NCBI GenBank assembly: GCA_963575745.1
Contig: CAUYUJ010000070.1
Span: forward strand, 310,001 to 374,000
Reading direction: 5' to 3'
Origin: Prorocentrum cordatum
Taxonomy: Eukaryota
Length of the DNA stretch: 64,000 nucleotides
Position numbers and translations under genes: made by a program. Position 1 is the first letter of the stretch; each line of letters starts with the position of its first letter. The notes below the pieces were generated by a model. It saw only the letters and a program-made list of their open reading frames with translations, had not been told where the DNA came from and searched no databases. Of the stretch, positions 3,536 to 58,827 are shown piece by piece.

Positions 3536-3866
3536 GGGGCACGTCACGCGGCGCGTCCCCTGGCACGTCCCCTGGCACGTCCCCTGGCACGTCCCGTGGC
3601 GCGACCCCTGGCACACCGCGTTGCGAGTCCCCTGGCACGTCCCCTGGCGCGTCCCCTGACACTTCCCCTGGCACGTCCCCTGGCACGTCCCGTGGCGCGA
3701 CCCCTGGCACACCGCGCGGCGAGTCCCCTGGCACGTCCCCTGGCACGTCCACTGGCACTTCCCCGGGCACGTCCCCTGGCACGTCCCGTGGCGCAACCCC
3801 TGGCACACCGCGCGGCGAGTCCCCTGGCACGTCCCCTGGCACGTCCACTGGCACGTTCCATGGCAC
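3536..3866. repeat. 12-bp CCCCTGGCACGT minisatellite (related tract at ~12900-13025)
   Basis: Directly visible. Confidence 0.9.
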
Positions 3867-12900: not shown

Positions 12901-13629
12901 CCCAGCACGTTCCGTAGCGCGTCCCCTTGGCACGTCCCGCGGTGCGTCCCCATGGCACGTCCCCTGGCACGTCGCCTGGCGCGTCCCTTGGGACGGTCCG
13001 CGGCGCGTCCTCCTGGCATGTCCCCTGTCAAACAGCTCTGGGGCAGCAACTGCTTGCTCAGGCAGATCGAGCTTCAGATCCAGATCAGTTCGTCAGGCCC
13101 CGGATGCAAAGGAGGACTCGATCCACAACGCCATAGAGCACAATCGCGGCATGGCACATCGCAGTTCAGCACGGCGCAGCACAGCACAGCCCGTGGCACG
13201 GCACATCATGATCGATACGCTCAGCATTGCAATTGCTCGTCGCCCAATCAGGTGTCTTGAAACCGCTGCCATGCCGCACATTTCTATATTCCCTACCAGG
13301 TTCGTGGGTCGATCCTGTTGAGCCTCCTGGCGGGGCCCTCGCCACCACAGCTGGATTCGTCTCGAAATTCGGGTCAGAGCGCACAACGGGAGTTGTCCGG
13401 TGAGCACTGGTAGCAGTGTTTATTCTTATTTCTCCCAAATGAGGAGGACAGGGAAAAAGGTGGAGGTGGAAGAGGTGCAGAGACAGGAGACCTGTGGGGA
13501 AGATGAGGTGAAGGACCCCGTCCTCCTCCCTCATCCCCCTCGTGCTGCTCCTCCTCCGTTCTCCACCTCCGCCCGAAGCAGACCCAATGCAGCTCTGGGC
13601 GGTTTGGCCGTTTTTAACATGTACGCAAT

Positions 13630-26430: not shown

Positions 26431-26449
26431 CCGTCCACGCTACCCATGT

Positions 26450-27100
26450 TGGGGTCAGTCCGGGGTCAGTCTGGGGTCAGTCCGGGGTCGGTCCGGGGTC
26501 AGTCCGGGGTCAGTCCCAGGGTCGGTCGGGGGTCGGTCCTGGGTCGGTCCGGGGTCAGTCAGCGGTCAGTCTGGGGTCAGTCCGGGCCGGTCCGGGGCCG
26601 GGGTCAGTCCGGGGTCAGTGCGGGGTCAGTCCGGGGTTCGTCCAGGGTCAGTCCGGGGTCAATCCAGGGTCAGTCTGGGGTCAGTCCGGGGTCAGTCAGG
26701 GGTCAGTCTGGGGTCAGTCCGGGGTCAGTCTGGGGTTCAGTCCGGGGTCGGTCCGGGGTCGGTCCGAGGTCAGTCTGGGGTCAGTCCCCCGGGGAGTCCG
26801 GGGACAGTCCGGGGTCAGTCTAGGACCATGACCAAGTCCGGGTCAGAGCCCGGGTCAGTTCAGGCGGGGGTCAGTCCGCGGCGAGGTCAGTCCGGGGTCA
26901 GTCCGGGCCGGGTCAGTCGGGGGTCAGTCCGGGGTTCAGTCCGGGGTCAGTCCGGGGTCAGTCGAGTCCGGGGTCAGTCCGAGGTCAGACAGTCCGGGGT
27001 CAATCCGGGGTCAGTTCGTGGTCAGTCGGGGGTCCGTCCGGGGTCAGTCCGGGGTCAGTCCGTCCGGGGTGAGTCCGGGGAACGCCCAGGGAACGTCCAG
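26450..27100. repeat. CGGGGTCAGTC 11-mer satellite (resumes at ~39897-39975)
   Basis: Directly visible. Confidence 0.95.
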
Positions 27101-27714
27101 GGACCGTCTGTTACCATGTTTTTCATGGTTGGTGTGCATGGTAAGTGCCCAATTTTGTTATAGGCGACTTATAATCACAGTAGTAAAAAATAATAATATA
27201 AAAAAACGTTGTATTGGTTTCCCCTTACGTGTTTATAAGTGTTTGTGAAGGCTTCTCAAGCTTATGTTAAATGTTATAATTGGGTGTAACGTTTTGTTTA
27301 GTTTAGCATAAGTGTTTGTAGTTGTTCCCTGATTGGCGTATACGTTGCCTTTGTTTTGCGGTCTACCCTGCCAGACAGCATGGCAGTCTACCACGCCTCA
27401 GAGTGCCAGGGGGCACGGTGGAATATGTATATTGTTTCCATTCGGGTCAACCACGGGACAACCAGAGGACAACGGCCTCAACCAGAACAAAGGCCGCATA
27501 CATATCGCCACAGACATTGCATGACACATCATATCAATCAGAAAACGCACGTCGTTTTTAGACCATCATCGACAACACCAAAGCCATCGTAACCATCAGA
27601 AACATCACCGCAATTACGTAATCATTCCCATCACAGTTACCATGCTCATAACAAACAGCAGCCACATGTCATAAACACCACAAAAACCAACATCATGAGC
27701 ACAATCAACAATGC

Positions 27715-27736
27715 ACCGTAGCCAGTTTGGGCTCAG
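27715..27736 (+). other. Relict DinoSL
   Basis: ACCGTAGCCAGTTTGGGCTCAG versus ACCGTAGCCATTTTGGCTCAAG (first 10 nt exact). Abuts a CA-rich spacer and precedes a decayed ORF. Confidence 0.8.
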
Positions 27737-27752
27737 TTCTTTCAGGTGGTTC

Positions 27753-29500
27753 ATGTTGGGCCCACGTCGCAGGCGGCGAGATATGTTTCAGTCGGTCACA
27801 TTTGTTCGGCAGCGCGTAGAGTATGTGGCCCATCATGTCGAAGTGCGGCGTGACGGGCGACAAGCTCGACTAGCTAAAGGTTGACACGTGCAGCGGTATA
27901 TTGCAGGCCACTAGCACCGCCAAGGCCGTGAAGCCAGACGACGCCATCATGAAACATCAGATCATTAGTGGGTGTCTCCAGTCAGGCGTGGAACTCATCA
28001 TGTGAGTGGTGCGGTCGCTCCAGAGAAGCAGCCCCGCACGTGCCTCGACATGTTCTTGACCGAAGAGGGCTGCTCGCAGTTCCTCGACGCGAATGCCGAC
28101 CCCCAGGCAAAATTGATGGTCATGGCGATGTTATTCGCCCTGATCTGCCTGAAGAGCCCCGACGAGAAGACGTTCGCCCGAGGTGAAGCGCTGGCCTCGC
28201 ATACGGAACCCTACAGCGATACGAAGCACATCGAGGAGACTCTGAATTCCAAGCTTCTCGTGAAGCGCACGGCCGAAAGCTCCCCGCGCGTGCTGGCGGG
28301 GCCGCGGGGGTGCCCGAATGACCTGGCAGCGTTCCAGCAGACGAGCCCAGACGTGTGCAAGCAGGCCTTCAAGTCTTCTCCTCCAGCGCCTGCGCGGTGG
28401 ACCCCGCAACACAGGGCCATGGTGGAGCAGATGAAGGTCTGCAGGAGCTCGAAGAGTGGATGCGATCAGTACTCGGCGGCGCCCGCGAGGCCGTCTAAGG
28501 GCCAGACGCGGCAGTTCATGGCCAAGTCCGTCCATGAGTGCCCCGAGGTCCCTCCTACCTGGCGCGGTGGCGAGCCCGACGGCCATTCAGCCCCATGGGT
28601 CACCGCCGCTGGCCAACGACTCGGCCCAGGGTGTCGCAGTCAGCTTGGCCCAGCCGCCGCCTGGGCGTTGGCGCCGCCAGCCTCCTTCCCAGGCGGTGCT
28701 CCAGATCCAGTCGGTGCTCATCCAGTTTCAGTCGGTGCCTCTGTTCCAGTCGGTGCCTTGCCAGTTCCAGGCGGTCCAGATCCAGTCGGTGCTGATTCTT
28801 TTCCAGGCGGTGCTCTCGTTCCAGTCGGTGCCCCCCCGGTCGGAGCTCCTGCAGCTGACGATGATGGCGATGGTGGCAGCGATGATGACGATGCCTCGCG
28901 AGGTGACACCACCCCGCCTCGCCTCCCTGTTCTCCCCCCCCTGGCCTGGGGGGGGCGGCGGGCGGCGCCTGGAGCTGCAACCCCGCGCCGCCCCCCCCCC
29001 CCCCCCATGCTCAGGGGCCAGAGCTCGCTGACAAGACGAAGAGCAAAGGCAAGGCCGGGGCAAAGGGCAAGGCTAAGGCCAAAGCAGCAGTGAAGAACAA
29101 GCCCGCCGCACATGCGATGAAAAAAGGCAGCCTCGAAGAATCGCGAGAATGACAACTTCGAGTACTCGGCGAAGTTCGCTCCGAGACGCTACAAGCAAGT
29201 GACGATCTACACGTCTCAGGCGAAGAAGTGCCGCCGCGTCGAGCCGCGCCCGGGCGCCATTGAGGAGGCTCTTTTCTCTTTCAACTCTCGCGGTGGTCGC
29301 CGGACGGCCCGGGCGGCAGCCGCGAGGCGCGCTCGGGCGTGCACGCGAGCAGGGCGCGCCTGAGGCGCGCGCCGGCGAGTGCGAATTCTGCGGGCTCGAG
29401 GGCGCCTGCGGTGATTCATTGCTCCCGCGGCGCGCGGGGTGGACGCGCGAGCTGCTCTTTTTTTTTCGGGCCGCCAGGCTGCCTCCAGTTTGCCGCGGGC
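27753..29500 (+). pseudogene. Decayed cargo gene 1 (unknown protein; PVGA repeats, K-rich tail)
   Basis: Protein-like stretch FLTEEGCSQFLDANADPQAKLMVMAMLFALICLKSPDEKTF in ORF 27972-29093, with apparent frameshifts. Follows a relict SL. Confidence 0.5.
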
Positions 29501-30669
29501 GCGACCTCGGGACCTCTCGCTTGACTGCGACGCGCGCGCATGGAAACCAGCGGCGAACACATGGCGCCACCGCCCGATGACCAATATGCAACGCAGCGAA
29601 ACGCGACCACACGATAAGCAGAGAGGCCACATACAACGCAACGAAATACAGCACAGCCAACATGTAGCACAGACAAAATATCATTAACATCGTCATGTTC
29701 ACCATCGGCACATCGTAAACATCTAGCATAAAACATCACATTGCCATCGCACAATATATCTACTCGTACGTCATCATCTTACCATCGCACATACATTCAT
29801 CATCATATTTGCACAATCTATCTACTAGCATCTTTACCATAGCACAGTGCACCCAATGCCATCATCACCGCCACCACCATCATCAAGTCAACATAGCACA
29901 CTACATCTAATAGCAGAAGCATCGTCATCTTCACCAACATTGCTGCAATTTGCTGCCTCGGCTCAATTTTCGAGTTTAGGCGCGCGCCGAGGCCCCTCCG
30001 TGGAACGAGATCACCCAATGCCCTCGCCCAGTGCCCAATTGACCAAAAAGGCGCAGAGGCTGGAGACAAAGGCACATAAGTACAAGACTGAGCGCGGCCG
30101 TGAGAGGCGCAAGGTCAAGGAGCTGAGCGCTGAGAAAGAGAAGCTCGAGAAAGCCAGCGGGGGTCTCATGGGGGCAGGATTTCCGACGCCTAAATCAGGG
30201 TGGACCCCGAGCGTCGCGAGGAGCGTCGTTCGCAAGGTGTTCGACGAAACGGGGCCCTCGCAGCGCACCTTGAGTTCGGTCAGCGAGGGCTCGCTGCGCG
30301 CTGTGATCTCGAGTTCTGCATCTGATTGGGTCTGCCAGTGAATTTCTCGTTGCGCGCTGTGCTTCAGGACTCGGTTGCCAAGTCGATCGGGCGTTGGAGG
30401 CGCGATGGGTGGATGGGGGGGGCATGCTATTAGTTGCAGTTTAGGGGCTACCGTGGAGGGGGGAGGGAGGATCGTAGCGCAACTTAGCAGAGCGTTGCAA
30501 GAATCAGATTCTGGCCTCCGCGAGTGTGCCATGAGTCGTTGCTCGGTGCCGGCCGTAAGGATAAAGCGGCGTCTGTTCGTTGCCTCATATCATCCCGCCC
30601 CCAACCCCAGCGAGAAGCCACGCGGCCGCATTGCCATTTCTTCCCTCGCGCCCCTCCATCCGCATATCG

Positions 30670-30683
30670 CATTCTGGCGCAAG
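30670..30683 (+). other. Possible truncated relict DinoSL
   Basis: CATTCTGGCGCAAG, 12/14 to the SL 3' end. ATG follows at 30738. Confidence 0.45.
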
Positions 30684-30737
30684 CATTTCGCTCCGACTCT
30701 TTGCGCCGCTGCGCCCCGTGCCAGTAGATCAGACACA

Positions 30738-31661
30738 ATGCCAGGCGCGGTGTCCAAGTGTTCCACTTGCAAGCCGGATTGCCCAGGAGGGCACAAGGGG
30801 CGCTTCGCGAGGTGCAACGCCATGATGAACAGGATCAATCGCGCGCTGGGCCTCGAGGGGGGTGGCGCCACCACGCCAGCGTTCAAAGCCGCGGTCGTCG
30901 ACGAGGCTGGCTCCCTCGAGCGCGCCGAGAATATGTTCGGGGAAGACCTGGCGCCCATGATCATGTCGGAGATCGGGGAGAAGGCCGAGACCTACACCGA
31001 GGTGGAGATGCAGGGGGCGGGGCACTTCCTCGACGAAGAGGGCGCGAGGAAGAAGTACAAGACCAAGCCGGAACGCTTGGCAGGCATCTTGGCCCGCGCG
31101 AGGCGCTTCGAGGACTTGATTTCGGGATCATCGAGGACATGGAGTGCAAGATCGTGTCGAAGTCAGGGCAGAAGGACGCGTTCACGGCGAAGCGCACGGG
31201 CACTTGCGAGGAGCAAGAGGCCGAATAAGAAGGTCGAGGTGAACCTTGCAGCAGGCGCTGCGGGATCGGGCGAGGGTGCGCCGGGGCATCCCGAGGCCTT
31301 GGCTGAGGCGGGCAAGAAACACCTCAGCGCGGCGAAGGAGGCCATCCAGAAGGCAGTGGATAAGCTCACCGCCACGCAGGGCGGCTGCATGATGGTCGAG
31401 GAGAAGCCCAGCTGGTACGACTTTGCCCCGCAGTGCGTCATTAACAGGAACGCCGCCGTGGGCACCAAGGCCGCGTCGCTACTGGCGCTCATCGGCATGG
31501 CCTTGGAGGTCAGCAGATCAGCAACCTCAAGAAGGTCGAAGCAGAGCTTGCGGATCTCAAGACGGAGCTGCAAGAGGCCATTCGCATCGTCAAGTTGCGG
31601 ACCGGCGAGCCCAAGAAGCTGGCCGACGACGGCGAGGAGGAGAAGTAGAGTCCAGGATTGA
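30738..31661 (+). pseudogene. Decayed cargo gene (unknown, helical, N-terminal Cys cluster)
   Basis: MPGAVSKCSTCKPDC...GHFLDEEGARKKYKTKPERLAGIL. GC3-rich codons; the reading frame appears to switch. Confidence 0.5.
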
Positions 31662-32999
31662 GGTCGCACAGCCCCTCCCAGGCCGCGTGGCGCCCGGTGC
31701 GAATGCACTGTGTCTAGTGTGATTAAACTGCGCCGCCGCACTTTTTTCACGTGGCGCCGACGATCGCGGGCCTGCGTTCACTGCTCGCATCGCACCCGAT
31801 ACGTGGTAGTCGCGCGATCAAGGAGGAAAAAAACAGCATCACCATCACCAGCATCATCAAAACACAGCATGACCCTCATACTCAGCATCAACATCAACAC
31901 CATTACCATCACCTCAAAATCAACGTCATTAACATCTTCATCATCATCAGCATCAACACCCTAGGCGACCCCAACAGCAACATCAATACCAACATCAACA
32001 TGGTCATCAGCACCAACATCAACATCGACGTCCTAGGGCGCTATCCACACCAACACCAAGGCCAATGTCAATACCCACATCAACATCAACATGACCATCC
32101 ACATCCACATATTAGGCCAACATCAACACCAGCAACAACACCAACTTCAACACCATATGCAAACATCGACATCAACATCAACATCCTAGGCCCCAGTAAG
32201 TTGCTGTTGTACTGGGGCCCTTTTTGCGTCAGCAGCGCTGCTGTTGTACTGGGGCCCTTTTCTTCGTCAGTAACGCTGCTGTTGTACTGGGGTGGGGGCC
32301 CTTTTTGCGTCAGTAACGCTGGAAGGCCCAGGCGGGCTTCCCAGCTGGGCCCCAACAGGGCCCCAGGGCCCCATTTGAAGTTCATGGCAGGAGTTATATA
32401 TGATCTCAGAGGGGCCCTGCAAAGCCCGAAGAAGCCCCCCCCCCCCACCCCCACGAGGGCTTAAGAGGGGCCCGAGAGCCCCAAGAGGACCCCATTTGAG
32501 TTCACAGCGGGGGCTGGGCTTTCTGGAGCGCAGCCCCGAAACGGTTTAGGGAGGGCCCCCCCCCTGTTATGCCAGAAATGTGCCGGGCGTGCGGGGCCCC
32601 CGCGGGCCAACGCAGTGCATCGAGTTCCGGCCCCCCCGCCGCTGTGCCGGAGCTGTGCCGGGATGTGCCGGGCCCCACGTGGGGGGGGGAACTTTCGGGC
32701 ACCCCTGGGGAAGATTTGCGCGGCCACCCCTGTGATACCTATGTACAGCGGAATCGTTAAGCCCTCCAGCGCCCCCAAAGAATTGGTTGGGCCCCCATGA
32801 TGGCTCCAAGTGGGCCCCATGGAGACGGTTCCAACATGGCCACAAAGACTCAGGGATGCTGTTAAAGTTCTGCCAGGCACTACGGGAGGTGGTTATAGAA
32901 AAGGCGACCCCCCATAGGCCCCACCCCTTGAAGTCCACCCCCATTGATTCTTTTTTTTTATATAAACAAGACTCTACCCCCCCCCCGGCGTTATCGGTC

Positions 33000-34230
33000 C
33001 CCTTTGGGTATGTAAATCACATATGGATGTTTCTGACCACGTGTCCATTTTGAACATGAAATCGCAATGTCCCAGGCCAACCGGGTTCCTCCCCTTGAGG
33101 TTCCTTTTTAACATAAAAATAACTATGCGATAACATCTTTTGTTCGAACATAGCAATTTTCACGAATCCCTTCCAACAAATGGAACGAAGTGCGCACGCG
33201 CGCGTCGTCGCGCGCGCATGCCGCAATCCCCCCAAAACCTTTGGTGCCGGGAGGATTTCGCAATCGAGTTCCCAAAACACATGCAAAAACATAGGGCTCC
33301 GCAGCACTGATTTGCGAAAAAAGCTTCCGCGCGAGCTTTTGCGAAATCTTAAGAAAACCATTCTGTTTTTTTCAAGATTTCACCAAATGCTATTAAACGG
33401 GTTTCGCGCGCATGTCGAAATCTGTCGAACGCCCTTGCGCGTGTGCCGTCGCGAGAATCCTCTGCAAAAAATGAGACGAAGTGCAGACGCGCGCGTCGTC
33501 GCGCGCGCATGCCGAAAACCTTCAAAACCCATCGGTTTCGAGAGGATGTCGCAATCGTGTGTCCAAAAACATACAAAAGCACAGGGTTTCGCAACACGGG
33601 TTTTCAACAAAAGCGTGCGCGCGCGCTCTTGCGTCGTCGTCGTCGTCGTCGCCGTCCTCCCTCCTCCCGCGTCGTCGTCGTCGTCGCCTACGTCGTCCTC
33701 TGTATTTGCTCGTGTTCGTCGTCGTCGTCGTCCTCTTTGGCGTCGTGGTCGTTTTCGTCGTCGTTGTCGCCGTGGTCGTCCTTCCTCCTCCTTCGTCGTC
33801 GTCGTCGTCGTCCGTCGCCAGCGTCTCGTCGTCATCCCTCCTATTTCGTCGCCGTCGTCGTCGTCGTTGTCGTCTTCCTCTTCCCTCCTCCCTCGTCGTT
33901 GTCGTCGTCGGCGTCGCCGTCCTTCCTCCTTCTTCGTCGTTCGCGTCGTCGCCGCCCTCCCTCCTCCCTCGTCGTTGTCGTCGTTGTCGTCGTTGTCGCC
34001 GTCGTCGTCCTTCCTCCTCGCTCGTCGTCGTCTTCGTCGGCGTCGTCGTCTTCGTCGGCGTCGGCGTCGGCGTCGTTGTCGTCGTCGAAGTCGTCGGAGA
34101 CGTCGTCGGTGCCCTTGTAGTCGTTGTCGTCGGTGTCGTCGTAGTCGGTCTTAAGAGGTTTTGCGCACCAAATTGCGGGTGGGTGGGTGGGATGTTTGCA
34201 AAAGCGTGGGATGTGTCAAATCATGTGTAA
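33000..34230 (+). repeat. Dispersed repeat (gcgcgcgtcgtcgcgcgcgcatgccg units plus (GTC)n tract); inverted copy at ~57640-58420
   Basis: Similar six-frame translations (RVVARACR..K..G..R.S) on opposite strands. Confidence 0.8.
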
Positions 34231-34358
34231 AAATCAGCTCCACCCCCCATAGGACCCACCCCCATAGGCGTGGAGTTGGCCCTCCTTTGCAGCGGGGTTC
34301 CAAATCTGACGGGGCCGTAATTGGCCCCGTCGTCATTCTGCCACCTCCCGAGCTACAC

Positions 34359-34374
34359 CCATTCTGGCTCAAAG
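34359..34374 (+). other. Truncated relict DinoSL
   Basis: CCATTCTGGCTCAAAG versus SL 3' part CCATTTTGGCTCAAG. ATG follows at ~34419. Confidence 0.6.
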
Positions 34375-34418
34375 CATCGGCGTCCGACGCACGCGCAGAC
34401 CAAGCCGAGGTCCGTCCG

Positions 34419-35186
34419 ATGGCGCAGGCCGAGGAGGTGCGTCCGATGGCGCAGGCCGAAGGTCGCACCGAACGCCCCAGCTTCACCATGGTGGTCCGTG
34501 TCCCCGAGGAGCACCTCCTGCAGGAGTACGACTACGTGGCGCGCCTGCCAGTGCTGGTCCAATTTCGCAAGAAGATCAAGCGCACCGAGACCCCGACCCC
34601 TGCAAGTAAGAAGGTGATCGCGGACCTGATCACGGATACCACCGACAAGGAAGGCCAGCCCAACCAGAAGGAGCAACCCAAACAGAAGGAGCACGAGGAC
34701 AACCAGAAGGAGCAGCCCACACAGAAGGAGCGGCCCAGCCAGGCGCAGCAGCAGGTGCACTTGCTGGACGTTCTCGCCCCCCTTGAGTGCTCCGACGACC
34801 GCCTGCCCAACAGTGCGCAAGCTCAACGACCAGGAGCCCCCCGAGCAAGTGCTGGGGGCCACGCTCGGCCCAGATGTGGCGACGCGGCCGGGGGGGGGAA
34901 GAAACGCGCGGCAGAACCGACGGTGGCAGCGAACGACTACTTCGCGACAGTCCACGCGGCTATCGGCCGTGCCTCGACGCTCGACAAGGCGGAACTCGTG
35001 GACCTGACCGGCGAGAGCGACACGATGGACACCTCCATCTTCGACGCGTTGGCAGCCTCGCAGTCCAGCCAGCCGCCGCTTGAGTTGGGGCCGCCGATCT
35101 CAGACTCGCTGCCAACCGCTGAGGACCCCTACGAGCAATGTTCGCAGCTCCGCTGGGCATCCCAGCAAGCGGTGCGAATGCATTGA
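34419..35186 (+). pseudogene. Cargo gene/pseudogene with QPxQKE repeats
   Basis: Protein-like ORF (MVVRVPEEHLLQEYDYVARLPVLVQFRKKIKR) downstream of a relict SL. Confidence 0.45.
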
Positions 35187-35616
35187 GTTTAGCGCGAGTT
35201 TTGCGCGCCGTAGCACTCTTTGACGCGGCGCCGACCCCCGCGGGCCTATGGCGATGCATTGCTCGCGCAGTACTCGCGCGATAAAGGGAAAATCGTCGTC
35301 GTCCGCCTCCGCCTCCCCCTCCCCATCATCATCGTGCTCGCTACTAGCATCAGCACTAGCACCAGCATCAACGCCAACATCTTCATCAACATCACCACCG
35401 TCATCACCAACTCACACCCAGCATCGTCAGACCACTCACATTGAGACTCGCTCCTTCCCAGACTCGCTCGCGTTTGCCAGGCAGGCTCGCTTTAAACTGG
35501 CCCCCCCCAGACTTGCCATCGCAGCGCCGCTCATGCTCAGACCCGCTCACGCACGTGCATGGGGATACTCGGTCTCGCCTGGTTCTTCAACTGTGCTGCC
35601 CCAGCTATAAGCCATT

Positions 35617-35638
35617 TCCGTTGCCGTTTTTGCTCGAG
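35617..35638 (+). other. Relict DinoSL upstream of the transposase-like remnant
   Basis: TCCGTTGCCGTTTTTGCTCGAG, 18/22 ungapped to DinoSL. Confidence 0.7.
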
Positions 35639-35769
35639 CTGAGGGGCCGCCCTATAGCGCATCATTCCCCCCTTAGCTGGTTTCGCGCAGTGGCTGGCAG
35701 GAAAAAGGAGTTCGACCAAACGCTGCAGGCTTGCGCCGCTGCGGCGGCTTCGAGCGGGCGCGCGGCGCA

Positions 35770-37684
35770 GCCGATGTTGCAGGCGATGTCAGCGCAGGCC
35801 GCGTCAGATGCGAGGAGAGCGCCACGGGCGCGCAAGCTGCCCCACCGACTGCTGCACGCCATTCGGCACGCAGGCACCCCGCAAGGCAACGTCGCCGTAG
35901 AATCACCGATGGCAGGCCCAAAGGGCACTCTGACGATTGATCACGTGCGCCTCGCTGCATTATTGTACCATGTGTGTTCTGCCTCGGCGAGTTTGTTTTA
36001 TAAAAAGTTTCCTTCGCGGGGTCGCACATCGCGTCGCCGTCAATGCATTGAACATCGCGATGTATCTGGACAAGGCCAAACCAGGGAGCGAAAGGCGCCC
36101 TGATGACGGAATGCCGTGCCAGCGCATGTACCTCCCCCCCCCCCCCCCCCCCCCCGCAGCATCCCGACCGGTCTAGAAAAGGTGACTCTGCCCGGCCGCC
36201 GTCCGTCTGCATGCGTGAAAGTATCTGACCAGAAAGCGCAGGCGCGGCGGACTCACGCCTCGTTCGGATCGTGACCGGATCGTTTCTCGGGTCGCTGAAT
36301 TGCGCTGGCTTGCAGTCGCAAAGGGGAGTCCCGCAGTTTCGCGCTCGGCCCTCGGTGCTCGTCGCCGACTGGGAACAGCGCGTGCGGGCCTTTAACCACG
36401 CGGGCTTCGACGGTAGCGTGCCCTGCGGATGGCGCTGCAATGCGCCGGGGCGGTGCCCCCCCCTCCCGCCGCGCCCACCCAGTTCACGTGAACAGCGCAG
36501 AGTACGACCGCGCGGGCTCCCACACGCCCGGGAGCAAGTGCGATTTGGCAAGGGGCGCGCAGGCGCGCGCGCAGGGCGGAGGCAACCTCGCGCACCCGCA
36601 ACAGTCCACAGGATCCAGCGGGACCCCGGAGGCGTGCTGTGGGCAAGCTTCGCGGGGTCCGCGCTGCGCCCGCCATGGCGCGAGTATCCAGACTGGATGC
36701 ACGTGCGCGCGGCGCCAGGGGGGGTACTACGAAATCAACGAGCTCGTGAACCTGCTATGCGGACACGGCATTACCGCAGTGACATGGACGCATGGTGTGG
36801 CCAGGTCGCTGCGCCGAGAAACTCGAAGAGCTTGGGGCGTATATTTTCCCGGGCCGCATCGCCATGAAACCTGGTAAGCACCTGAAAGGTTCTGCAGCGT
36901 AGGCGCTCTCAGCTACTGTCGTTTTGGGGGCTGTTCATCAATATCGTTGTGGCGCCGCAGAACATCCCTGGACTGCAGCGAGCATTGGACTGTTTCTTAT
37001 TGCTTCGGGTTATATGGGCTATATTACAGAGGGGCTGTCTTGGCAATATACCGACGCTGCAGGGCGCAATCCGGACTCGCCGCGAGCTTTTTGCGAGCTT
37101 GTATCCCATGTCTGTGAAAAGGAATATGCATCGGGGGAAACACCTTCCTGAGCTTTGGATCCGGTAGAAAGTTGTTCGGTCTTGATTTGGCCCAGAACGC
37201 CACCGCGAGCCGGCGAAGCGCGCGCGGCTACGCGCTCAACAATTGCACGACAACAATTCCCGCAAGCGATTTGCAGCAGTTGGTGGAAGGGTTGGGGGGG
37301 GCCGACACGGTGGAGCCATGCAGTCTGCGTGGGCGTGCCCATGCGTGCAACGCAGCTTTCGTGACTTCCGACCAGAGCCTCATCCAGCGCACAGCCTGGG
37401 CTCTCTTAATGAATTCACCGACAGGGCAACTCGCGAAGGGGGGCCTCCTGCAGTGGCGTGAGAATTGCTTGGCGCGCATCGGGTTTGAGTTAGGTTTCGC
37501 GCGCGCAGGTGGAGACCGCCCCGAACGCGTTGCCATCGCGCGCTCCTGCGCGGCGCGCGGCCCGTCGACCTGGGGGCGGCAGGTCGCCGAGGTTTGTGTC
37601 GCGCGGGCGCCGGCAATTGTAGGAAGCGTGTTCTGTGCTCACATTGGCGGCGAGATCACGCCTGCATTGTTGCGCGAGTCTTAG
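35770..37684 (+). pseudogene. Frameshifted transposase-like remnant (CMC/EnSpm-type resemblance)
   Basis: Motif fragments across frames: MYLDKAKPGSERRPDDG, VLVADWEQ, PCGWRCN, YPDWMH (a D-x-M-H motif as in EnSpm/CACTA transposases). Recognised by eye only. Confidence 0.5.
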
Positions 37685-38069
37685 CCGAGCCGCTTGCGAA
37701 AACAAAAAATGCAAACGCGCATCAGTACGCAGCCACTGCCATCATGCAATCCCAAAGCCAACGCACTTGCATCATAGAAAGTCGATGCCGCGATCATGCA
37801 TACAAGTACGTGCAGAGCTATAAACTGTGAGCATTCGTTCGTGCCACAATATATACGCGCATTATACAGCCAACATCGTCATCATCAGTGAACATATCGT
37901 AACCACCACCGCACAAACATCATCGTGCACGTCGTCACCATAACATCACCACCATCGTCATCATCGCACATACCGTCACTGTCATGCCGCGGCCGATCAC
38001 GAGTCCTAATGCATATTCGCGGGGCTCCCCGCTTTCTCGCCTTAATATATTACGTGAGCTCTCGTGGCG

Positions 38070-38790
38070 AGTCCATTCTTGCGTTGCGGCCGCGCCCTGC
38101 CCCCTGGCTGCGGCCGCGTTGCGCTGCCGCCGAGGCCTGGCTGCGGCCGAGCGGCGCTGCCAGTGGCGACGACGCCGCTGAGGTTGTAAGGTCTGCCTGC
38201 TCGGACGCGCCCATTGGCGGTGGTCTCGCCTCCGACCGGGCCGCCTCGGACGCTGCGGCCGCCGACCAGGGGGGGCTCGCCGCCTCGGGGGAGCTCGCCG
38301 CCCAGGCTGCCTCGGACAAGCCCTCCGACCAGGCCTCATCGGAGGGCGCAGCCGCCGACCAGGGCAAGCTCGACGGTCGGGCTGCTGCGGGGGGGGTCGC
38401 CGACCAGGCCGCCTCGGACAGGCTCGACAACGAAGCCGTCTCGGATGCGCTCGCCGACCCAGGAGCGTCGGGCGAGCTCGCCGACCAGGCCGCGGGGGGG
38501 CTCGCCGACCAAGCCACGGGCAAGCTCGCCGACCAGGCCATTTCGGACGCGGTCGTTGCCGCCTCCGCCGGCGGCGCCACGACCGACTGGGACGGCGGTG
38601 AAGAAGATCACCGCCCGCGACCGCGGCCAAAGCGCAGGCGCGGCAAAGTTGAGCCTATAGAGGAGAGGGTGCGCAAGTTAGGCAGGTTTGCCGAGCGCGT
38701 GCGCGCGCTTCCTAGCGAGATGCGGCGCTTGCTGAATTCGAGCGCGCAGCAATGGGCGGTGGCTCCGACCGGGAACACGGCCTGCGCAAA
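38070..38790 (+). pseudogene. Cargo ORF remnant with ADQAA-type tandem peptide repeats and a basic PRPKRRR motif
   Basis: Repeating gccgaccaggcc units at ~38230-38545 within ORF 37925-38848. Confidence 0.35.
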
Positions 38791-40517
38791 AATCAGCATC
38801 ACTTTCATCAGCATCCGCATTATTACGCATCGCCAGCATCAACGGTAAGCAAACGCAACACGAACGACAATAATAAACATCACCATCAATTTAGCACCAC
38901 CAGGTATCACCAACATCACCACCATAACCATGAAGGCTAAGCACCGCCAACAACAGCATACCACCAATTTACATCATCAGCATCATCAGCATCACTACTA
39001 ACACCACAATCGATACTATCAGCAGCAATCACAAACAACACAGCAGCAACACTCGTAGTAAGCATAACCACCAACATCTATATGTATATATAAATATACA
39101 CAAACATCTATATATATGTGTGTATATATATACACATACATACTGGCCTTCGGCCTATCCCGCCAACGTGCCTGGGTGGTGGGTCAGAGGCGTCATGGAT
39201 GCGGCGAATCCTTCGCGGACCCACCCACCCACCGCACGGTTCGGCAACGAGGCGGCGCTGACGGCAACGTGTCGAAACTTCGGCGGGCCCGCCCAGTGCA
39301 CGCGGCGGCAATGCTAGGTCCACAATACGCATGCAACGTGGCATAAACATCATAGAGCTCAAGTAACTTTATTATGCGACCCGCACCGCCCCCCAACACC
39401 CACCGCACGAACTAAACGTCATAAGTTTCAAGAGGCGATCACAAGTGCAATGCTACGGCCAACTGCGAAGGCTTTTATCGGCAACCTGTACGCACGTATG
39501 AAAATGATGTGGTGCATATGAAAACGCCCGGGATCGCATATATGTTGTTTTCATAAGTGTTTGTGTTTCGTAATTGCTAACATAAGCTTTCATACGTGAT
39601 TATGAATGTTTCGTCCATTTTACATACATAACTTTAAATCGTGTCGTTAACTTTTCGGTGAATCTTTATGTTGGCCTCATCATACACGTGTGAATGCCAT
39701 GCGGAAATTATAACTTCTCATTTGCGTTATATGTGTTTTAGACTTTAGCTTTGCCTCATACGTGCCTAGGCGGTTATAGTCGGTTATGACCAGGTTATAT
39801 ATATATATATAGAAGCTAGTTATAGTGCACCTTATAACGCCGCTTAAGCACTTATAAGGCAAGCCGACCAAAAAGGACATGGTAGTGGGGACCGTCCGGT
39901 CTCAGTCCGGGGTCAGTCTGGGGTCAGTCCGGGGTCAGTGTGGTCAGGCCGGGGTCAGTCCCGGGTCACTCTGGGTGGACCCCAATTGGAGCAAGTCTTG
40001 CGCAGCCGAGCCGACCGCCACAGTACGAGATACACGCGCACGTTGGGGCGAAAAGAGATATTGTAGTTTGCTTTAGGAAATGAGAGTGTGAGCGGGCCGA
40101 TCTAGTTTTCGGACTTGCGGAAGTCGGGTGCATCAATTTCCGATCTAGTTTAGCCGATACCTAGTTTCACCGATTTTTTTTGTAACGAGCGGAGAGTAGT
40201 TGAAGGGGCGTGCATTAATCATTTATACTTGGAAGCGCTTGGCAAATGTGGATCATACACATTGGACCAGCGTGAAGCACGTAGAAATACGTACGGATGC
40301 ATACGGTGGAAACAAAATGTGTGTTAAGTGCGGAGTTCGTTGGAAGACGCACCAAAAGTACAGCCAGCCAGCCTAACCCGATTGAGTAGCCGCACGAAGC
40401 ATTTCTTTCCATGCCCTTTCTTCTTGGTTCAAGCTTGCCTGAAGCGATGCCACTTCGGCCCCAGCCTAACTCAGGCATGCCTTTGTAACTGAACGCAACC
40501 TTAAGCACATTCGATCT

Positions 40518-41342
40518 ATGCTCGAGATTGCAAACAAATGCAGCATGATCTGCACGATGATGCTTACCTTCGCTTGCAAAGTGGGCGCCGACTCGCAGCT
40601 CATGCAGGTAAGGACCAACACGAAAGAAGCAAATAACGAGATGCCGCCAGAGTACCTAAACGTGGAGTGGCCGTGCTCGAATCCCACGATCGGCGCTTCT
40701 CTCTTCTCCCTGAGAGGAACGAGTGCAGCGGGAGCGCCATTCTACTCCAACTCAGACCACACTGACGTTCGTGTCGGGCCTGGCGCATACCTTTATTGGG
40801 ACCCCAGTTGTGACGCAGTTTCAGCAGGAGTACCTAGATGGATCGTTGATGTGGAGCAGCCAAGTGCGTCAGTTGCCAATGACCTCGATCTGGATACCCA
40901 GTGTTCTTATTTTGGGCATTACGCCACATCTCTTTCCAGTCATGTCCCTTTGGGGGCCTTACCTTTTTTCGCATACTGCGACGGTAATCTGACCGACATG
41001 ACGGTTACGATCACGGTCCCGCACGGAGCTGAGCCGGGGCTTGTGCTTGAGCCTGCTTCAAGAGCGTGCTACACATCTGTCCAGGGCGATAGGTGTTACG
41101 AACATGTATTGTGGGCTATGCAGACGGGAATCGTGGAGCACCCAGACTGGTATCAGGGCTTGACCAAGGACTCCAGCTTTGAGGACTTCCAGCAGCACTT
41201 GCACGGCTCGGCCAGGCTGTCCGCTGTCTGCCCCAAGCCATGTTTCGCACCGGAGGCGGCAAAGCTAGCTGCACGGACTTCAGACGGGATTCGCGATTTC
41301 ACTGACCCATTGGAGGGAACCTCAACGTACACTGAAGCATGA
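40518..41342 (+). CDS. Intronless gene for a Cys-containing protein of unknown function (possible retrogene)
   Basis: 274-aa non-repetitive ORF at lower GC than its surroundings. Contains CYTSVQGDRCYEHVLWAMQTGIVEHPDWYQGLTKDSSFEDFQQHLH...CPKPC, resembling a Cys-bounded module I recall from dinoflagellate proteins (unverified). Confidence 0.7.
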   Translation: MLEIANKCSMICTMMLTFACKVGADSQLMQVRTNTKEANNEMPPEYLNVEWPCSNPTIGASLFSLRGTSAAGAPFYSNSDHTDVRVGPGAYLYWDPSCDAVSAGVPRWIVDVEQPSASVANDLDLDTQCSYFGHYATSLSSHVPLGALPFFAYCDGNLTDMTVTITVPHGAEPGLVLEPASRACYTSVQGDRCYEHVLWAMQTGIVEHPDWYQGLTKDSSFEDFQQHLHGSARLSAVCPKPCFAPEAAKLAARTSDGIRDFTDPLEGTSTYTEA

Positions 41343-41948: not shown

Positions 41949-42024
41949 GTGTGTGTGTGTGTGCGTGTGTGTGTGTGTGTGTGTGTATGTGTGTGTGTGT
42001 ATGTGTGTGTGTGTGTGTGTGTGT
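41949..42024. repeat. (GT)n microsatellite at LINE 3' flank
   Basis: Directly visible. Confidence 0.98.
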
Positions 42025-42408: not shown

Positions 42409-45400
42409 TCACCTCAGATCCCGTCCAGTTTTTGGGTCCTGGCCGCGCTGGATGCGGCGGATGCGCCTGAGGCGCTCCCTGTCGCCTGGGTCACGCGGGT
42501 CCAGCCTCCTGCACGGCCCGCCGAGGTTCCTGGCCACCGAGCTGTAGTAGGAACCGCAAACCACGCAGACCACGAAGTGGCCGATGATCTCGACCGTATG
42601 CGGCCGCGGCTCCGACGAAGCGGCCCTGGCCGTCCCAGGCAGCGCCTGGCCACTCCTGGCGGGCTGGGCAGAGGCCGCCCGCCCGCGCGCACCCTGCTCT
42701 GGCTCCGAGGCCGCCGCGGCCGCAGCCGAGGGCGGCGGGGGCCCCGCCAGCGGTGCCAAGCCTCCCTGGCCCAAGCCCGCCGCCGCCGCCGAAGATGCTG
42801 GGGAACCAGTCCTTGGGGCCTTACCACCGTGTTTCAGGCTGCCCTGTCCAGCACGAGCTTGGTGTGCCGCCAAGGGGGCGGAGCACGCTGCGGCCGCTGC
42901 CTGGGTGGCAGCCTTGCCGTCCACGGCCAGGGAGCTGGCCAATTCGCCCAGATCAGCTCCAGGCTCACCATCAGGTTGAACCGCAGTCGACACCGTGGGA
43001 ACCGCTGCCCCAGCGCCAGCCACTCCACCGCCGACCACTTCTTGGGAACTGGTGGCTGCCGCACTGCGGATCCGCAAAACACCCTCCCGCCTCACCCCAC
43101 CCGCTGGAGCTCCCTCCTCCTGTGGCTGGAGTGCCCTGGGGGCGAGGTCGGGATTGGGCGACGACACGCGCTCCGACGCTTGGGTGCCGGTGGCCGCCGT
43201 GCCGCCTGCCTCCACCACCTCGAGGTCGCTGTGCACGCTGAGGGCCGCGAACTCGTCGGCATCGTCGTACCCCATGGCGCCCTCGGCTGCGCGGCCTGCC
43301 GCATCACCTCCTTGGTCGTCCTCCGAGGAGAGGGGCTCGAAGACCCACTGGTGCCACGAAGCCGTCTCAGGCGGGGCACGATCTCCCAGAAGCTCCTTGA
43401 AACGCTCCCTGACCTGGTTCAGCACGTCGAAGTGATGCCGAAGCAGCCGACGTCGCTGTTTGGCTGTCAAACCCGAGTCAGGCCGTACTCTGGCGAACTG
43501 GGCCTGACGGGCTGGCTCGGCCCGCGTCCAAGAGGTAGCGCATAGGTCGTCGACTACCTGCCCTAGAGTGCGGCCAGGGTTGCTGCGTAAAAGATGCTCT
43601 CGAACTGGAGTCCACGTCGCCAGGCTGAGAAACCTCTCAAGGTATTCCGAACACCACGTACGGTAGTCCCACTCGTTGGTGAAGCCTGCCACGTCGAAGC
43701 GATCGATCCAGAAAGACGCCCAGATGATGGCATCGTCCATGATGGAACGGACCTGCTGCTGCTCGAGCGTGATGTGCGGCTGGCTTGACGGGGTTCCCAT
43801 GCACGCAGGGCCGTCGGGTATCCGCTCCATCCTGCCCAGAGCCTCACGGGCTGCTGCGACATGAGCCCACAGCGGGTCGGGGCCCAGCTGGGAGGCTGGC
43901 GCAGGGTCGGGCTCTACCCGAGGCTCATCCTGATCTCCATGGTCTGCCCGTTGTCGGACAGGCCGAGCGGCGGCGCCTGCTGCCACGAGAAGAGGCACTG
44001 CCACCCTGCCTCTCTTGACCGCACTCTTGACTAACTTGCCCTGGAGCCCTTGGAGACGACCACGGCACTCCTGCAACTGAAAGGCCGCGAGGCGAGTGCG
44101 GGCAATCTTGCCGCAGCTGGTGCACTTGGAATAACCGCGGCACACTTCCAGAACGTGCGGGTGCCTGGGACCAGCCTGAGGTCGCGCTGCCTGCGGAATG
44201 TTGGCCTCTTGGCCCTGCTGTCGTTTGGGCCTAGGCTCCGCCAACTTGACCCCGTCGAGGAGGACCCTGAAGTGCCCGATGTACTCGAGCACGCGCTTGG
44301 TGGCCTTGAGCTCCTGCTTGACCTGCAACGTGGCCCACTCTGGCGGCGCGCTGAGGTCTGCCCCTTGCTTGGCCCATTCGTCTGCTAAATCATTGTGCTT
44401 CATATGAATCTGGACCTCCTCTGGCAGCTCTAGACGTTTGGCCTGCGATATGTGCGAGGTGACTTTGATGACAGACAGCTCTCTGCCAGGAAGGATGTCC
44501 ATGTCGTCCAGGCGGTCCCAGATCTCGAGCCAGACGTGCGCATAGGGCCTGGCCGAGGAGCAACACCATGCCCTGCCACGAGCCAAGCCTCGGACCACCT
44601 GGGCATTGTCAATGATGATGGCCGTGATGAAGAGCGCATGCCTGAGGGCGTGGAGGAGACCCCACAACTCTGCCAGGGCCGAGCTGGGGTCGGGAAAGGG
44701 CAGTGGGCCGTACAGGCCCTGCACCACATCATCGGCCTCCGCTGTGCACTGCAAAGCCGCCCAGCCGCCGTGCCTGAGGTCATCCAAGCCCTTGACTGAT
44801 CCGTCCGACACCAGCACACCCGTGAGCTCGGGGGCCGCGCCATTGACGATCCAATAGGTGCACTGCGACGGTAGACTCCAAGCCAAGCCGTAACATGGGG
44901 TCCGCCGCAAACCCCGTTCCCATAGCCACCTTGAGGCTTCCGACGAGGAGGCCGACACGCCCAGGTGGACGACGTCTCTGAAGGTAGGTGATGCGTCGTG
45001 GGCTGTCAGCTGCTCCCTTACTGTAGCACACGTCGGGCTGCCGCACCGCCAGTAATAGTGCTGGTGCGTGCCGAAACAGGTCGTGTCGTCGCACAGCTGG
45101 CAATACGGAGTGCCCGCCTGGCCCGACAAGAAAAGAGCCTCCTGCGAAGGGAAACCTCCCAGCACCGCCTTCTTGACCGCGTCGGCATGGTGCTGCAGCC
45201 ACCCGTCCTGCTTGCGTCGCTTGACCAACTGCCTCGCTGGGGTGAGCCACGGTGCTGGCAGGAGCGCCGCCCGCTCGGGCTGGGCCGCCGCCCACTGGCA
45301 CAAAGCTCGGGAACGGGCGGCCAACAGCACGGCGGCCTCAACGGACTTGGGGCAGATCTGCAGTAGATCCAGATGTACGTCCCCTCCTTGGAGCACTCCG

Positions 45401-51189: not shown

Positions 51190-51592
<403 letters not shown>

Positions 51593-58420: not shown

Positions 58421-58827
58421 GGCTGGGGGCGGGGGGCGCCGATACCGGTTTGGCTGGGATGTTTTTCACAGGCAGGATGGACATTGGGTGAGAATCTGAT
58501 GTGGTTTACATCGGTACCCGGGGGGTCTTTAACCCAAGGGGGGGAGGGTGGTAGAACTTATGTTCTTTCCAGAAAGGAGATTTGATGTGGCAGTATATGT
58601 TGTGCAATATGTGACGTGCAGCCTGTGTATGTATGCATCATATATAGTTATACAATTACATATGTGTATATATATATACAGATAACTTTACGTTGTGCAG
58701 TCCATGTGGCCTAAACAATCCAGCTGCCTGCAGCAAGTCCCGTCGTCGCGCCAGCCCAGCATTCTGGGCGGCGACTGTTCGCGGGGGCGCGGGAGGCGGG
58801 CATGTGCGACAGGCTTGGGAGCAGCCG

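Follow-up and report, generated by a model that had tools for sequence, protein, structure and literature searches.

The 64-kb window analysed here (the whole stretch of 64,000 nucleotides, numbered from its first letter) contains an 11-bp satellite that is split by an insert of 12,779 bp (27109–39887; Table 1). The window also holds a perfect 21-nt spliced leader (51190–51210), which marks it as dinoflagellate nuclear DNA. On the left, the satellite GGGGTCAGTCC was called by Tandem Repeats Finder at 26451–27062 and continues in variant units to 27108; the same unit resumes on the right flank. The 9-mer GGGACCGTC occurs twice in the window, at 27100 and 39888, and both copies abut the insert directly. 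An A-for-T departure is common to the last three units on the left (GGGGAACGCCC, AGGGAACGTCC and AGGGACCGTC) and the first on the right (GGGGACCGTCC), and taking out the insert with one 9-mer restores an 11-nt satellite unit in phase. Of the possible duplicates, the 9-mer alone fits; none of 2–5 bp does so at any shift of the boundaries that preserves the inverted ends. The interrupted satellite and the 9-bp duplication, with its departures from the satellite unit common to both sides, were features of a preliminary description of this DNA, and both are borne out. Adjacent satellite units with a common variant could imitate a target-site duplication, and the array has two instances of a 10-nt unit with GGGGG after it.

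A second satellite of the window, GGCACGTCCCCT, likewise forms two arrays separated by 9 kb, so a split array is nothing unusual in this region. The sequence TACCCATGTT, which precedes the 11-bp satellite at 26441, was considered as a related end and rejected because it belongs to a neighbouring 89-bp repeat.

Table 1. Coordinates of the insert, its flanks and its contents, in window positions
Feature	Position	Strand	Details
Satellite, left part	26451..27108	.	11-bp unit GGGGTCAGTCC; last 3 units with GGGGA/AGGGA variant
9-bp flanking duplicate GGGACCGTC, left copy (candidate target-site duplication)	27100..27108	.	
Left terminus, TGTTACCATGT...	27109..27153	+	Inverted-repeat arm 27112–27148
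Left A+T-rich sub-terminal region	27109..27460	+	13-mer ATAAGTGTTTGTG at 27235 and 27308 (1 mismatch); 12-mer AAGCTTATGTTA at 27258
Relict dinoflagellate spliced leader ahead of gene 1	27716..27735	+	Score 30
Gene 1, intronless processed pseudogene of P0001/P0002 family	27835..28838	+	63% identity
Short coding-like ORF	29920..30340	+	
Weak leader-like stretch CATTCTGGCGCAAG	30670..30683	+	Score 20; 55 nt before ATG at 30738
Gene 2, coding-like	30738..31650	+	Frame changes near 31100 and 31480
A/C-rich CATCA-type spacer	31834..32196	+	
High-copy genomic repeat	32977..33873	.	Second copy inverted at 58548–57666
Acidic low-complexity ORF over (CGT)n tract	33380..34150	-	
Relict spliced leader ahead of gene 3	34359..34372	+	3' two thirds; score 24
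Gene 3, open 255-aa ORF, strongly coding-like	34419..35186	+	
Relict spliced leader ahead of gene 4	35618..35638	+	Full length; score 26
Gene 4, intronless decayed copy of ~670-aa P0004/P0005 family (candidate transposase pseudogene)	35828..37684	+	
Gene 5, coding-like, repetitive	38020..38848	+	ADQAASD-type repeats
Right A+T-rich sub-terminal region	39300..39887	+	13-mer ATAAGTGTTTGTG at 39553; inverted 12-mer 39578–39589
Right terminus, inward reading CACTACCATGT...	39843..39887	-	Inverted-repeat arm 39848–39884
Satellite GGGGTCAGTCC, right part	about 39887..39975	.	About 8 units (Tandem Repeats Finder)
9-bp flanking duplicate GGGACCGTC, right copy	39888..39896	.	

Terminal inverted repeats lie at the exact ends of the insert, as in a TIR transposon. 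A repeat search of the window paired the two arms over 37 nt at 73% complementarity, and the anchored 45-nt termini score 13, a value reached in 0 of 5,000 shuffles. In a comparison with approximately 128,000 positions and strands, the left end finds its best non-self match in the right terminus, inverted, at 39887 (score 13), and the right end in the left terminus, inverted (score 14 at 27108 and 13 at 27109); the next unrelated place scores 11. This reciprocal-best match exactly at the junctions confirms the degenerate inverted termini reported previously, as does the inward reading of the right end, CACTACCATG (CACTACC). The left end reads TGTTACCATG (TGTTACC), so that the outermost three bases disagree (TGT versus CAC), and inverted-repeat likeness is only 64–73%, whereas the 9-mers are identical at 9 of 9 positions. 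The left terminus also holds a small hairpin (ACCATG-TTTTT-CATGGT).

Inside the termini, both ends consist of A+T-rich, non-genic DNA (about 350 bp on the left and 590 bp on the right) with a GC content of 0.48–0.49, versus about 0.6 in the interior, and the drop is abrupt and symmetric. Three copies of the 13-mer ATAAGTGTTTGTG occur at no more than one mismatch, all within the two sub-terminal regions (at up to two mismatches, 7 were found and 0.44 expected), and the 12-mer AAGCTTATGTTA is common to both regions in inverted orientation. At that stringency, neither motif occurs elsewhere in the window. A possible small relative with ends CGCTACCATAT and CACTACCATAT (10188 and 10393) was rejected because these sequences form the interior of a 45-nt inverted repeat that surrounds a (TCC)n tract. 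Identification as an LTR element, Helitron or Polinton was also rejected: the longest direct match between the ends is 13 nt, and domain searches gave no polymerase or integrase.

The interior of the insert is a plus-strand chain of intronless, mRNA-derived units with CAT-rich spacers between them, and three of the units have relict leaders. At least two are pseudogenes. Genes 1 and 4 combine a leader relic with a lack of introns, and gene 4 also has an A-rich 3' end, in keeping with processed retrogenes; their matches to P0001 and P0004 are colinear and free of intron-type gaps. Residues 146–178 of P0004 are unmatched in gene 4. Comparison with intact relatives shows a stop at codon 13 of gene 1, together with a 13-aa gap and frame changes, and for gene 4 a path through frames 2, 3, 1 and 2 with four in-frame stops. 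At least five decayed plus-strand ORFs had been proposed; decay is proven for these two genes, and three further plus-strand stretches (30721–31620, 34321–35160 and 38041–38760) are coding-like. The proposal that all cargo lies on the same strand does not hold, because one coding-like stretch (33901–34200, inside a high-copy repeat) is on the minus strand.

Gene 2 has a 3' untranslated region similar to that of gene 3; no relatives of gene 2 were found among 8,000 scored candidates in the searched length ranges, and the ESM Atlas gave no usable match for gene 3. Spacers similar to the one in Table 1 occur at 27450–27705, 29600–29940, 35318–35430, 37870–37985 and 38788–39070. The two copies of the high-copy repeat align by blastn at 83% over 723 nt (33158–33873 with 58367–57666), and a 100-aa tblastx segment (41%) extends the match to 32977 and 58548. 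A search of public runs listed three DNA runs and no RNA run. In a public sequencing run of the same organism (X1, about 3–4× depth; X2 and X3 were also used), the summed contig depth of this repeat is 1.4–2.6 × 10^4, versus 3–4 for unique pieces. It is the only match of the element to the window by tblastx, which found no cargo paralogues. Pfam searches with 130 stop-to-stop ORFs of at least 60 aa on both strands of the element (E up to 0.01–0.1) returned no credible family, the best matches being unrelated DUFs (E 0.003–0.08), and 88 long ORFs in the rest of the window gave only a weak RVT_1 match. One 2,931-aa ORF, 2.5 kb from the insert, has a weak reverse-transcriptase match and a perfect leader at its head. 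Rfam and tRNA scans of the window found none.

Three leader relics score 24 or more on the plus strand, where 0.03 would be expected per 12.8-kb strand. All significant relics are on that strand, and the relic of the first unit lies 607 bp inside the left end. Four leader-like sequences had been described; those near 27715, 34359 and 35617 stand, but the one at 30670 is not significant alone, as 0.88 hits are expected at its score. Relict leaders are general in dinoflagellate genomes, preceding more than 20% of genes according to PMC11453091 (further sources on retrogenes with relict DinoSL are PMC5585692 and PMC6050394). To judge from the sequence, the relic and 5' untranslated region of gene 1 seem to have come down with the gene family instead of having arisen at insertion here.

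Gene 4 matches residues 48–663 of P0004 over 35831–37669 (tblastn, summed E 1e-62). Among 1.84 billion representatives, the ORF at 37118–37681 has 14 relatives (E 7e-9 to 8e-4), two of which are 666–670 aa; the ORF at 35360–36100 had no match within the searched length ranges. The decayed copy retains YLDKA, ADWEQ, PCG..C, YPDWMH and FGPERH; its last part is a BAH-like domain (37214–37669), and a BAH fold is found at the C terminus of the P0004 family. Invariant in P0004 and P0005 are D125, C245-x2-C248, D335-W-M-H, H483-x3-H487 and E505; the cysteine and histidine pairs precede E505 and are also kept in L002, an intact relative on another contig. The presumed second aspartate, D226, is present in P0004, L002 and the window copy and is a tyrosine in P0005. 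The pairs lie between the second aspartate and the glutamate only if the former is D226/E228, not D335.

With this assignment, the intact relatives show a D..D..C(2)C..H(3)H..E pattern, and we take the C(2)C and H(3)H spacings to equal those of RAG1. Their helical domain comes closest to the ZnH2 domain of RAG1/Transib; in structure comparisons of gene 4 relatives, RAG1, RAGL and Transib rank highest once BAH matches are set aside, and the ESM Atlas returned Plavaka-bearing clusters at 0.93 and 0.91 (157–158 shared features). A comparison of 35770–37684 with EnSpm/Tnp2, Plavaka, KDZ and Mutator models had been suggested. The Pfam Plavaka, KDZ, Transposase_21 and MULE models matched neither window ORFs nor intact relatives (P0004, P0005 and P0011) at E up to 10, and a PDB search with a sequence profile of the P0004 family found nothing. 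An A-rich stretch follows the gene 4 stop, as in the related locus L001; leader relic, short untranslated regions, A-rich tail and CAT spacer make up the same build as in its unrelated neighbours, and gene 4 may simply be one more retro-pseudogene.

Contigs of X1 covering position 27380 have a summed depth of 14.6, and one of them (depth 8.5) carries a 2-bp insertion, a hint that the left sub-terminal region has at least one more copy, differing in sequence. Pieces of the interior behave as single-copy DNA in this run (8 contigs, 0 differences, depth 3.0–4.4). Neither junction is bridged by any of the X1–X3 contigs listed, and a terminus pattern with 27 specified bases had 0 matches in metagenome contigs. 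A protein-guided locus search of metagenome contigs yielded three loci (L001–L003); the same search of genome contigs and viral contigs yielded none. In L002, the intact relative lies on a 4-kb contig amid ordinary spacers of the CAT type seen in the window; this contig has no inverted repeat like the ends of the insert, and none of its leader-like stretches is significant. What lies beside an intact family member on another contig bears no relation to the window's cargo, so a conserved gene set is not shown. The previous interpretation, a large DNA transposon whose gene set passed through spliced-leader mRNA retroposition, is partly supported.

At its junctions the insert is built like a TIR DNA transposon, as supported by the split satellite, the unique 9-bp duplicate, the reciprocal-best termini and the sub-terminal motifs. 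Our preferred reading, held tentatively and at slightly less than an even chance, is that 27109–39887 is one dead copy of a TIR, DDE-type transposon in the 11-bp satellite, and that gene 4 is the CMCT-related transposase of this element or a sister element. The transposase would bind the imperfect terminal inverted repeats of about 40 bp, and probably also the sub-terminal 13-mers; strand transfers would fall 9 bp apart in the target satellite, and gap repair would leave GGGACCGTC on both sides. Gene 4, of a CMCT-related lineage (EnSpm/Transib/Plavaka-like), would have passed through a spliced-leader mRNA copy, a route taken by many dinoflagellate genes, and the present copy would no longer be able to move by itself. 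That this is the first member to be described from a dinoflagellate lineage of CMCT transposons, with a BAH-like chromatin-reader domain at the C terminus of the transposase, a 9-bp stagger and a transposase gene rebuilt from its own trans-spliced mRNA, we consider doubtful.

Only one copy was observed, which weighs against the TIR reading, as does the misfit between 9 bp and the 2–5 bp of the clade to which the candidate transposase is assigned. A real but non-autonomous TIR copy, carrying cargo and moved in trans by an unrelated 9-bp transposase (Mutator-like, compare Pack-MULEs), with gene 4 a captured or later-landed retro-pseudogene, is somewhat unlikely in our judgement. Its duplication would be the Mutator norm, and the build shared by gene 4 and its neighbours, the status of gene 1 as a host-family processed pseudogene with a seemingly inherited relic, the lack of conserved cargo beside the intact relative and the single-copy interior all agree with it; so does the CMCT range as given in PMC12730594, which stops short of 9 bp. 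However, the window showed neither a MULE transposase nor an inverted repeat of at least 100 bp, the single transposase-like gene detected in its 64 kb is inside the insert (about 20% expected by position), and the one CACTA end and short sub-terminal repeats fit EnSpm style better than MULEs.

Transposition may also have had no part. A retrogene array could have come to lie between satellite pieces by filler-DNA break repair, integration of circular DNA or unequal or ectopic recombination, with the 9-mer derived from neighbouring units and the inverted likeness due to chance. Neighbouring satellite units often have common variants, 10-nt units occur, the GGCACGTCCCCT satellite is split too, the inverted repeat is weak with discordant outermost bases, and CAT-type spacers with plus-strand retrogene units are normal genome fabric (L002; PMC11453091). 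We nevertheless think this quite unlikely, given termini that are mutual best inverted matches exactly at the junctions, a 9-mer variant found nowhere else in the window, the 13-mer and 12-mer confined, at the stringency used, to the two ends and the symmetric drop in G+C. Very improbable is a reverse-transcribed, head-to-tail concatemer of spliced-leader mRNAs, in which template switching joined the messages and target-primed reverse transcription, a process able to leave a 9-bp duplication, inserted them. Nearly all coding-like units, like the relics, share one strand, and the 2,931-aa ORF is close by, but poly(A) is present at neither outer end; the ends are instead non-genic with inverted termini, the first relic lies well inside the left one, and the high-copy repeat and a minus-strand unit are in the insert.

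Dinoflagellate genomes are huge and repeat-rich, and hardly anything is known of their DNA transposons beyond automatic repeat masking and small intron-generating elements (PMC11453091, PMC7789003, PMC9860276 and PMC12130899). Access to how class II elements work in a genome that lacks bulk nucleosomes and in which every mRNA is trans-spliced would come from a full-length element that has defined ends, a defined duplication and a candidate transposase. If the reading of a dead transposon with a CMCT-related transposase is true, a RAG1/Transib-related enzyme with a BAH-like reader and 9-bp duplications would extend what is known of the clade; if gene 4 is only a passenger pseudogene, the locus is ordinary, one old non-autonomous insertion in junk DNA.

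CACTA elements are of the order of 10 kb, with several genes and short sub-terminal repeats, and the insert resembles CACTA/En-Spm in each of these respects and in one CACTA end. The CACTA-like terminus of the preliminary description holds for the right end but not for the left, so that 5'-CACTA...TAGTG-3' is not found at both ends, and CACTA membership fails on the duplication, which is 9 bp, not 3 bp; Pfam gave no Transposase_21/Tnp2 match. Among Mutator-like elements, duplications of 9–11 bp are the norm, inverted repeats are usually long and non-autonomous members need no transposase; Pack-MULEs have a 9-bp duplication, a cargo of host-derived gene pieces and no working transposase of their own. 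The insert is like Pack-MULEs in its duplicate, its host-derived cargo and its lack of a working transposase, but its inverted repeat is about 40 bp at 64–73%, not long, and the window shows no MULE-type transposase. In its motifs the P0004 family presumably fits the CMCT description, not that of KDZ (Kyakuja, Dileera and Zisupton). KDZ elements, large DDE transposons of eukaryotes that acquire additional genes, share a longer duplication with the insert; this is 7–8 bp, with CA..TG ends, according to PMC12730594, versus 9 bp here, and no Pfam KDZ match was obtained.

For the CMCT clade (EnSpm, Mirage, Chapaev, Transib, RAG1, Plavaka, ESTA and Lanisha), the same paper gives duplications of 2–5 bp, mostly CA..TG ends, and C(2)C and H(3)H motifs that precede the final catalytic glutamate (PMC12730594). 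The gene 4 relatives are like the clade in these motifs, in their structural matches and in the Atlas lead to Plavaka; a BAH-like C terminus in CMCT transposases was not found in the literature searched on transposons and retrogenes. Plavaka itself is described there with TGT..ACA or CATCA..TGATG ends and 2–3-bp duplications (PMC12730594); the insert differs in both, has no PF18759 match by HMMER and is tied to Plavaka by Atlas feature scores only. Unlike CACTA and CMCT elements, the insert has a 9-bp duplication, a TGTTA left end, no HMMER match to Transposase_21 or Plavaka, and a gene 4 headed by a relict spliced leader. In this last respect it is like the relict-DinoSL retrogenes of dinoflagellates, which are intronless units with a degenerate 21–22-nt leader shortly before the start codon; unlike ordinary DinoSL retrogenes, these units form a chain, one of them transposase-like, inside inverted termini and a flanking duplicate.

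An 11-bp satellite is split at 27109–39887 by 12,779 bp of other DNA. Within the 64 kb, the 9-mer GGGACCGTC, which differs from the satellite unit at two positions, has just two occurrences, one abutting each border of this insert (27100 and 39888). An A-bearing variant is common to the last three units on the left and the first on the right. Removal of 27109–39896 gives ...AGGGAACGTCC AGGGACCGTCC GGTCTCAGTCC... in perfect 11-nt phase, as read from the junction sequence. Because the 9-mer is confined to the two junctions, the variant is common to both sides and the phase is restored, we conclude that the two arrays were formerly one, into which 12,779 bp was inserted. On the junction sequence, the simplest reading would be an exact 9-bp target-site duplication at the borders. 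Blunt insertion between two adjacent units carrying the same variant, without duplication, is a possible second reading, because 10-nt units followed by GGGGG are found twice in the array. Another satellite, of 12 bp (GGCACGTCCCCT), likewise forms two arrays on the same strand, 9 kb apart (3538–3866 and 12905–13027).

The ends of the insert resemble each other more than chance would predict when they are compared where a transposon reading places them. The longest inverted pair within 27000–40000 (27112–27148 and 39848–39884; 37 nt, 73%) has an identical offset from both ends, and its local score over 700 × 700 nt merely equals the best of 100 shuffles. Anchored 45-mer termini score 13, reached by 0 of 5,000 shuffles; across all window positions on both strands, the best non-self match of each terminus is the other terminus, inverted, at the junction, and the next unrelated place scores 11. 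The outermost three bases are unlike (TGT versus CAC, three transitions), so only the right end reads 'CACTA'. A+T-rich DNA extends over about 350 bp at the left end and about 590 bp at the right. The 13-mer ATAAGTGTTTGTG has its three best matches at 27235, 27308 (one mismatch) and 39553, all sub-terminal, and seven matches with up to two mismatches versus 0.44 expected; a 12-mer is common to both ends, inverted (27258 and 39589). Combined, these features are the look of a terminal-inverted-repeat (TIR) transposon with putative sub-terminal binding sites. Elsewhere, an imperfect inverted repeat of about 45 nt (CCGGGTGATGGGC...CTACCATATG) flanks a 144-bp (TCC)n tract at 10160–10440.

Positions of satellite arrays, coding-like stretches and CAT/CATCA-type repeats (window coordinates unless a contig is named)
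Feature	Position	Strand	Basis
11-bp satellite, unit GGGGTCAGTCC	26451–27108; again 39887–39975		Tandem Repeats Finder and unit reading
Coding-like stretches	27940–28780; 29920–30100; 30700–31600; 34300–34960; 37180–37480; 38020–38540	+	Codon log-odds
Coding-like stretch, sole one on minus strand	33880–34060	-	Codon log-odds
CAT/CATCA-type repeats	27450–27705; 29600–29940; 31834–32196; 35318–35430; 37870–37985; 38788–39070		
CAT/CATCA-type repeats, metagenome contig L002	476–520; 3205–3260		

The window comes from the nuclear genome of a G+C-rich dinoflagellate; its G+C content is about 0.6, and micro- and minisatellites occur throughout (136 Tandem Repeats Finder rows). The 21-nt dinoflagellate spliced leader (DinoSL), queried in the form that we take to be canonical, is present perfectly at 51190–51210 on the minus strand (any match in 0 of 100 shuffles in the window scan). 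Directly behind it lies an uninterrupted 2931-aa ORF (42412–51210, minus strand) with a weak RVT_1 match (E 5.7e-4, residues 1516–1694) and (GT)n or (GTGT)n tracts on both sides (41949–42024 and 51210–51592). This unit resembles a recent insertion, into an (AC)n microsatellite, of a retrocopied giant gene or retroelement bearing a reverse transcriptase. ORF 40470–41339 (plus strand), immediately to the right of the insert, carries a cysteine-rich C..CY..V.WA...GI..HP.WY.GL motif and had no Pfam match; it is probably a real gene.

We scanned the interior by codon log-odds trained on the 2931-aa ORF and found plus-strand cargo units parted by A/C-rich CATCA-type spacers (repeat family D1); 35860–36700 gave no coding-like signal. 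Three leader relics score at least 24, where 0.03 are expected per strand; they stand at 27716, 34359 and 35618, and every one is on the plus strand. The preliminary description had seen a bounded element with four leader-like sites, and its observation was confirmed except for the one at 30670, whose score of 20 is a level where 0.88 matches are expected. Its 'SL-retroposed gene set' is true and generic in dinoflagellates, in which relict leaders mark more than 20% of genes according to PMC11453091. A block at 32977–33873 is present inverted at 58548–57666 (a 723-nt core at 83%, extended at the protein level to those ends) and is very high-copy in X1, a public low-coverage DNA run of the same organism (about 3–4× coverage), with a summed depth of 1.4–2.6 × 10^4 versus 3–4 for unique DNA. 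Eight X1 contigs (222–727 nt, depth 3.0–4.4) match the interior without a single difference, and therefore the cargo is single-copy in X1.

The high-copy block has an internal duplicate (33164–33277 and 33455–33568), and the (CGT)n tract after it reads as an acidic minus-strand ORF. Behind each retrogene-like unit come first an A-rich stretch and then CAT/CATCA-type repeats, a layout found likewise after genes on L002, an unrelated contig of another, A+T-richer organism; such (CAT)n-type tracts may be favoured landing sites of retrocopies or a component of general intergenic spacer. Genes 2 and 3 have unrelated coding parts, yet their 3' UTRs (31695–31788 and 35170–35266) match at 73% over about 95 nt; the window has no third copy.

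Gene 1 (ORF 27969–29090) has two relatives, P0001 (404 aa, E 9e-95, 63% identity) and P0002. By tblastn it is colinear, intronless and broken, with a stop at codon 13, residues 58–70 absent and frame changes. The predicted N terminus of P0002 translates a 5' UTR matching that in the window (FVRQRVEYVA) and a leader-like stretch (EASFGL versus RSQFGL in the window). At the protein level this suggests that relic and UTR predate the split of these homologues, in which case the relic would attest retroposition in the past of the family without implying it upon entry into this element.

Gene 4 (35828–37684, plus strand) is the candidate transposase. ORF 37118–37681 matched 14 representatives (E 7e-9 to 8e-4) in the C-terminal 150 residues of proteins of up to 666–670 aa. 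One intact relative, P0004, covers 35831–37669 (summed E 1e-62): residues 48–102 in frame 2, 101–145 in frame 3, 179–514 in frame 1 and 512–663 in frame 2, with residues 146–178 lost around a poly-C tract and four stops, all in the frame-1 segment. The remnant previously bounded at 35770–37684 is thus a full-length, intronless, decayed copy. It lies 45–60 nt behind a leader relic, and an A-rich stretch follows its stop, as on L001, a metagenome contig with a P0004-type gene. Downstream of that gene, on the opposite strand, L001 has a tandem array of the spliced-leader 3' half (TTTTGGCTCAA), three to four copies at 41-nt spacing (1773–1982, minus strand).

Pfam searches at E up to 10 returned no match for P0004, P0005 or P0011, and a sequence profile of the family found nothing in the PDB. 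In the ESM Atlas, P0004 groups with unnamed clusters of 87–143 members (0.98) and, as a lead, with Plavaka (PF18759) clusters at 0.93 and 0.91, with 157–158 features in common. Invariant between the full-length relatives P0004 and P0005 are D125, C245-x2-C248, D335-W-M-H, H483-x3-H487 and E505; D226 is present in three of four sequences, P0005 having Y. The P0004 spacings D226–C245 (19) and H487–E505 (18) are equal or nearly equal to what we take to be those of RAG1 (D708–C727 and H942–E962). The family is probably a CMCT-related (EnSpm/Mirage/Chapaev/Transib/Plavaka/RAG1) DDE transposase to which a BAH-like domain has been added, a candidate member of that clade. Among the papers on transposons or retrogenes that our literature searches returned, none was found to describe such an element or a BAH-bearing dinoflagellate CMCT transposase, which does not prove absence.

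A transposon is the best reading of the insert, and a TIR insertion of some kind is quite likely. Whether gene 4 was the transposase of these termini is about evenly balanced, and the full statement, a TIR transposon whose own transposase is gene 4, falls slightly on the doubtful side. For the link, gene 4 is the sole transposase-like gene found in 64 kb and lies inside the insert, one end of which reads CACTA in an EnSpm-like architecture. Against it, gene 4 has exactly the build of its unrelated retro-neighbours, and its intact relative on the 4-kb L002 (51% identity) sits amid satellites and CAT spacers with unrelated neighbours, with no inverted ends on that contig. The 'unclassified superfamily' of the preliminary description is more than one copy can support, and membership in CACTA is contradicted by the duplication length and by one terminus. 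A 9-bp duplication is the norm for Mutator elements, and the putative duplication of the insert equals it. The insert differs in this from the CMCT clade (2–5 bp) and KDZ (7–8 bp), as given in PMC12730594, a difference that counts against gene 4 as the source of these ends.
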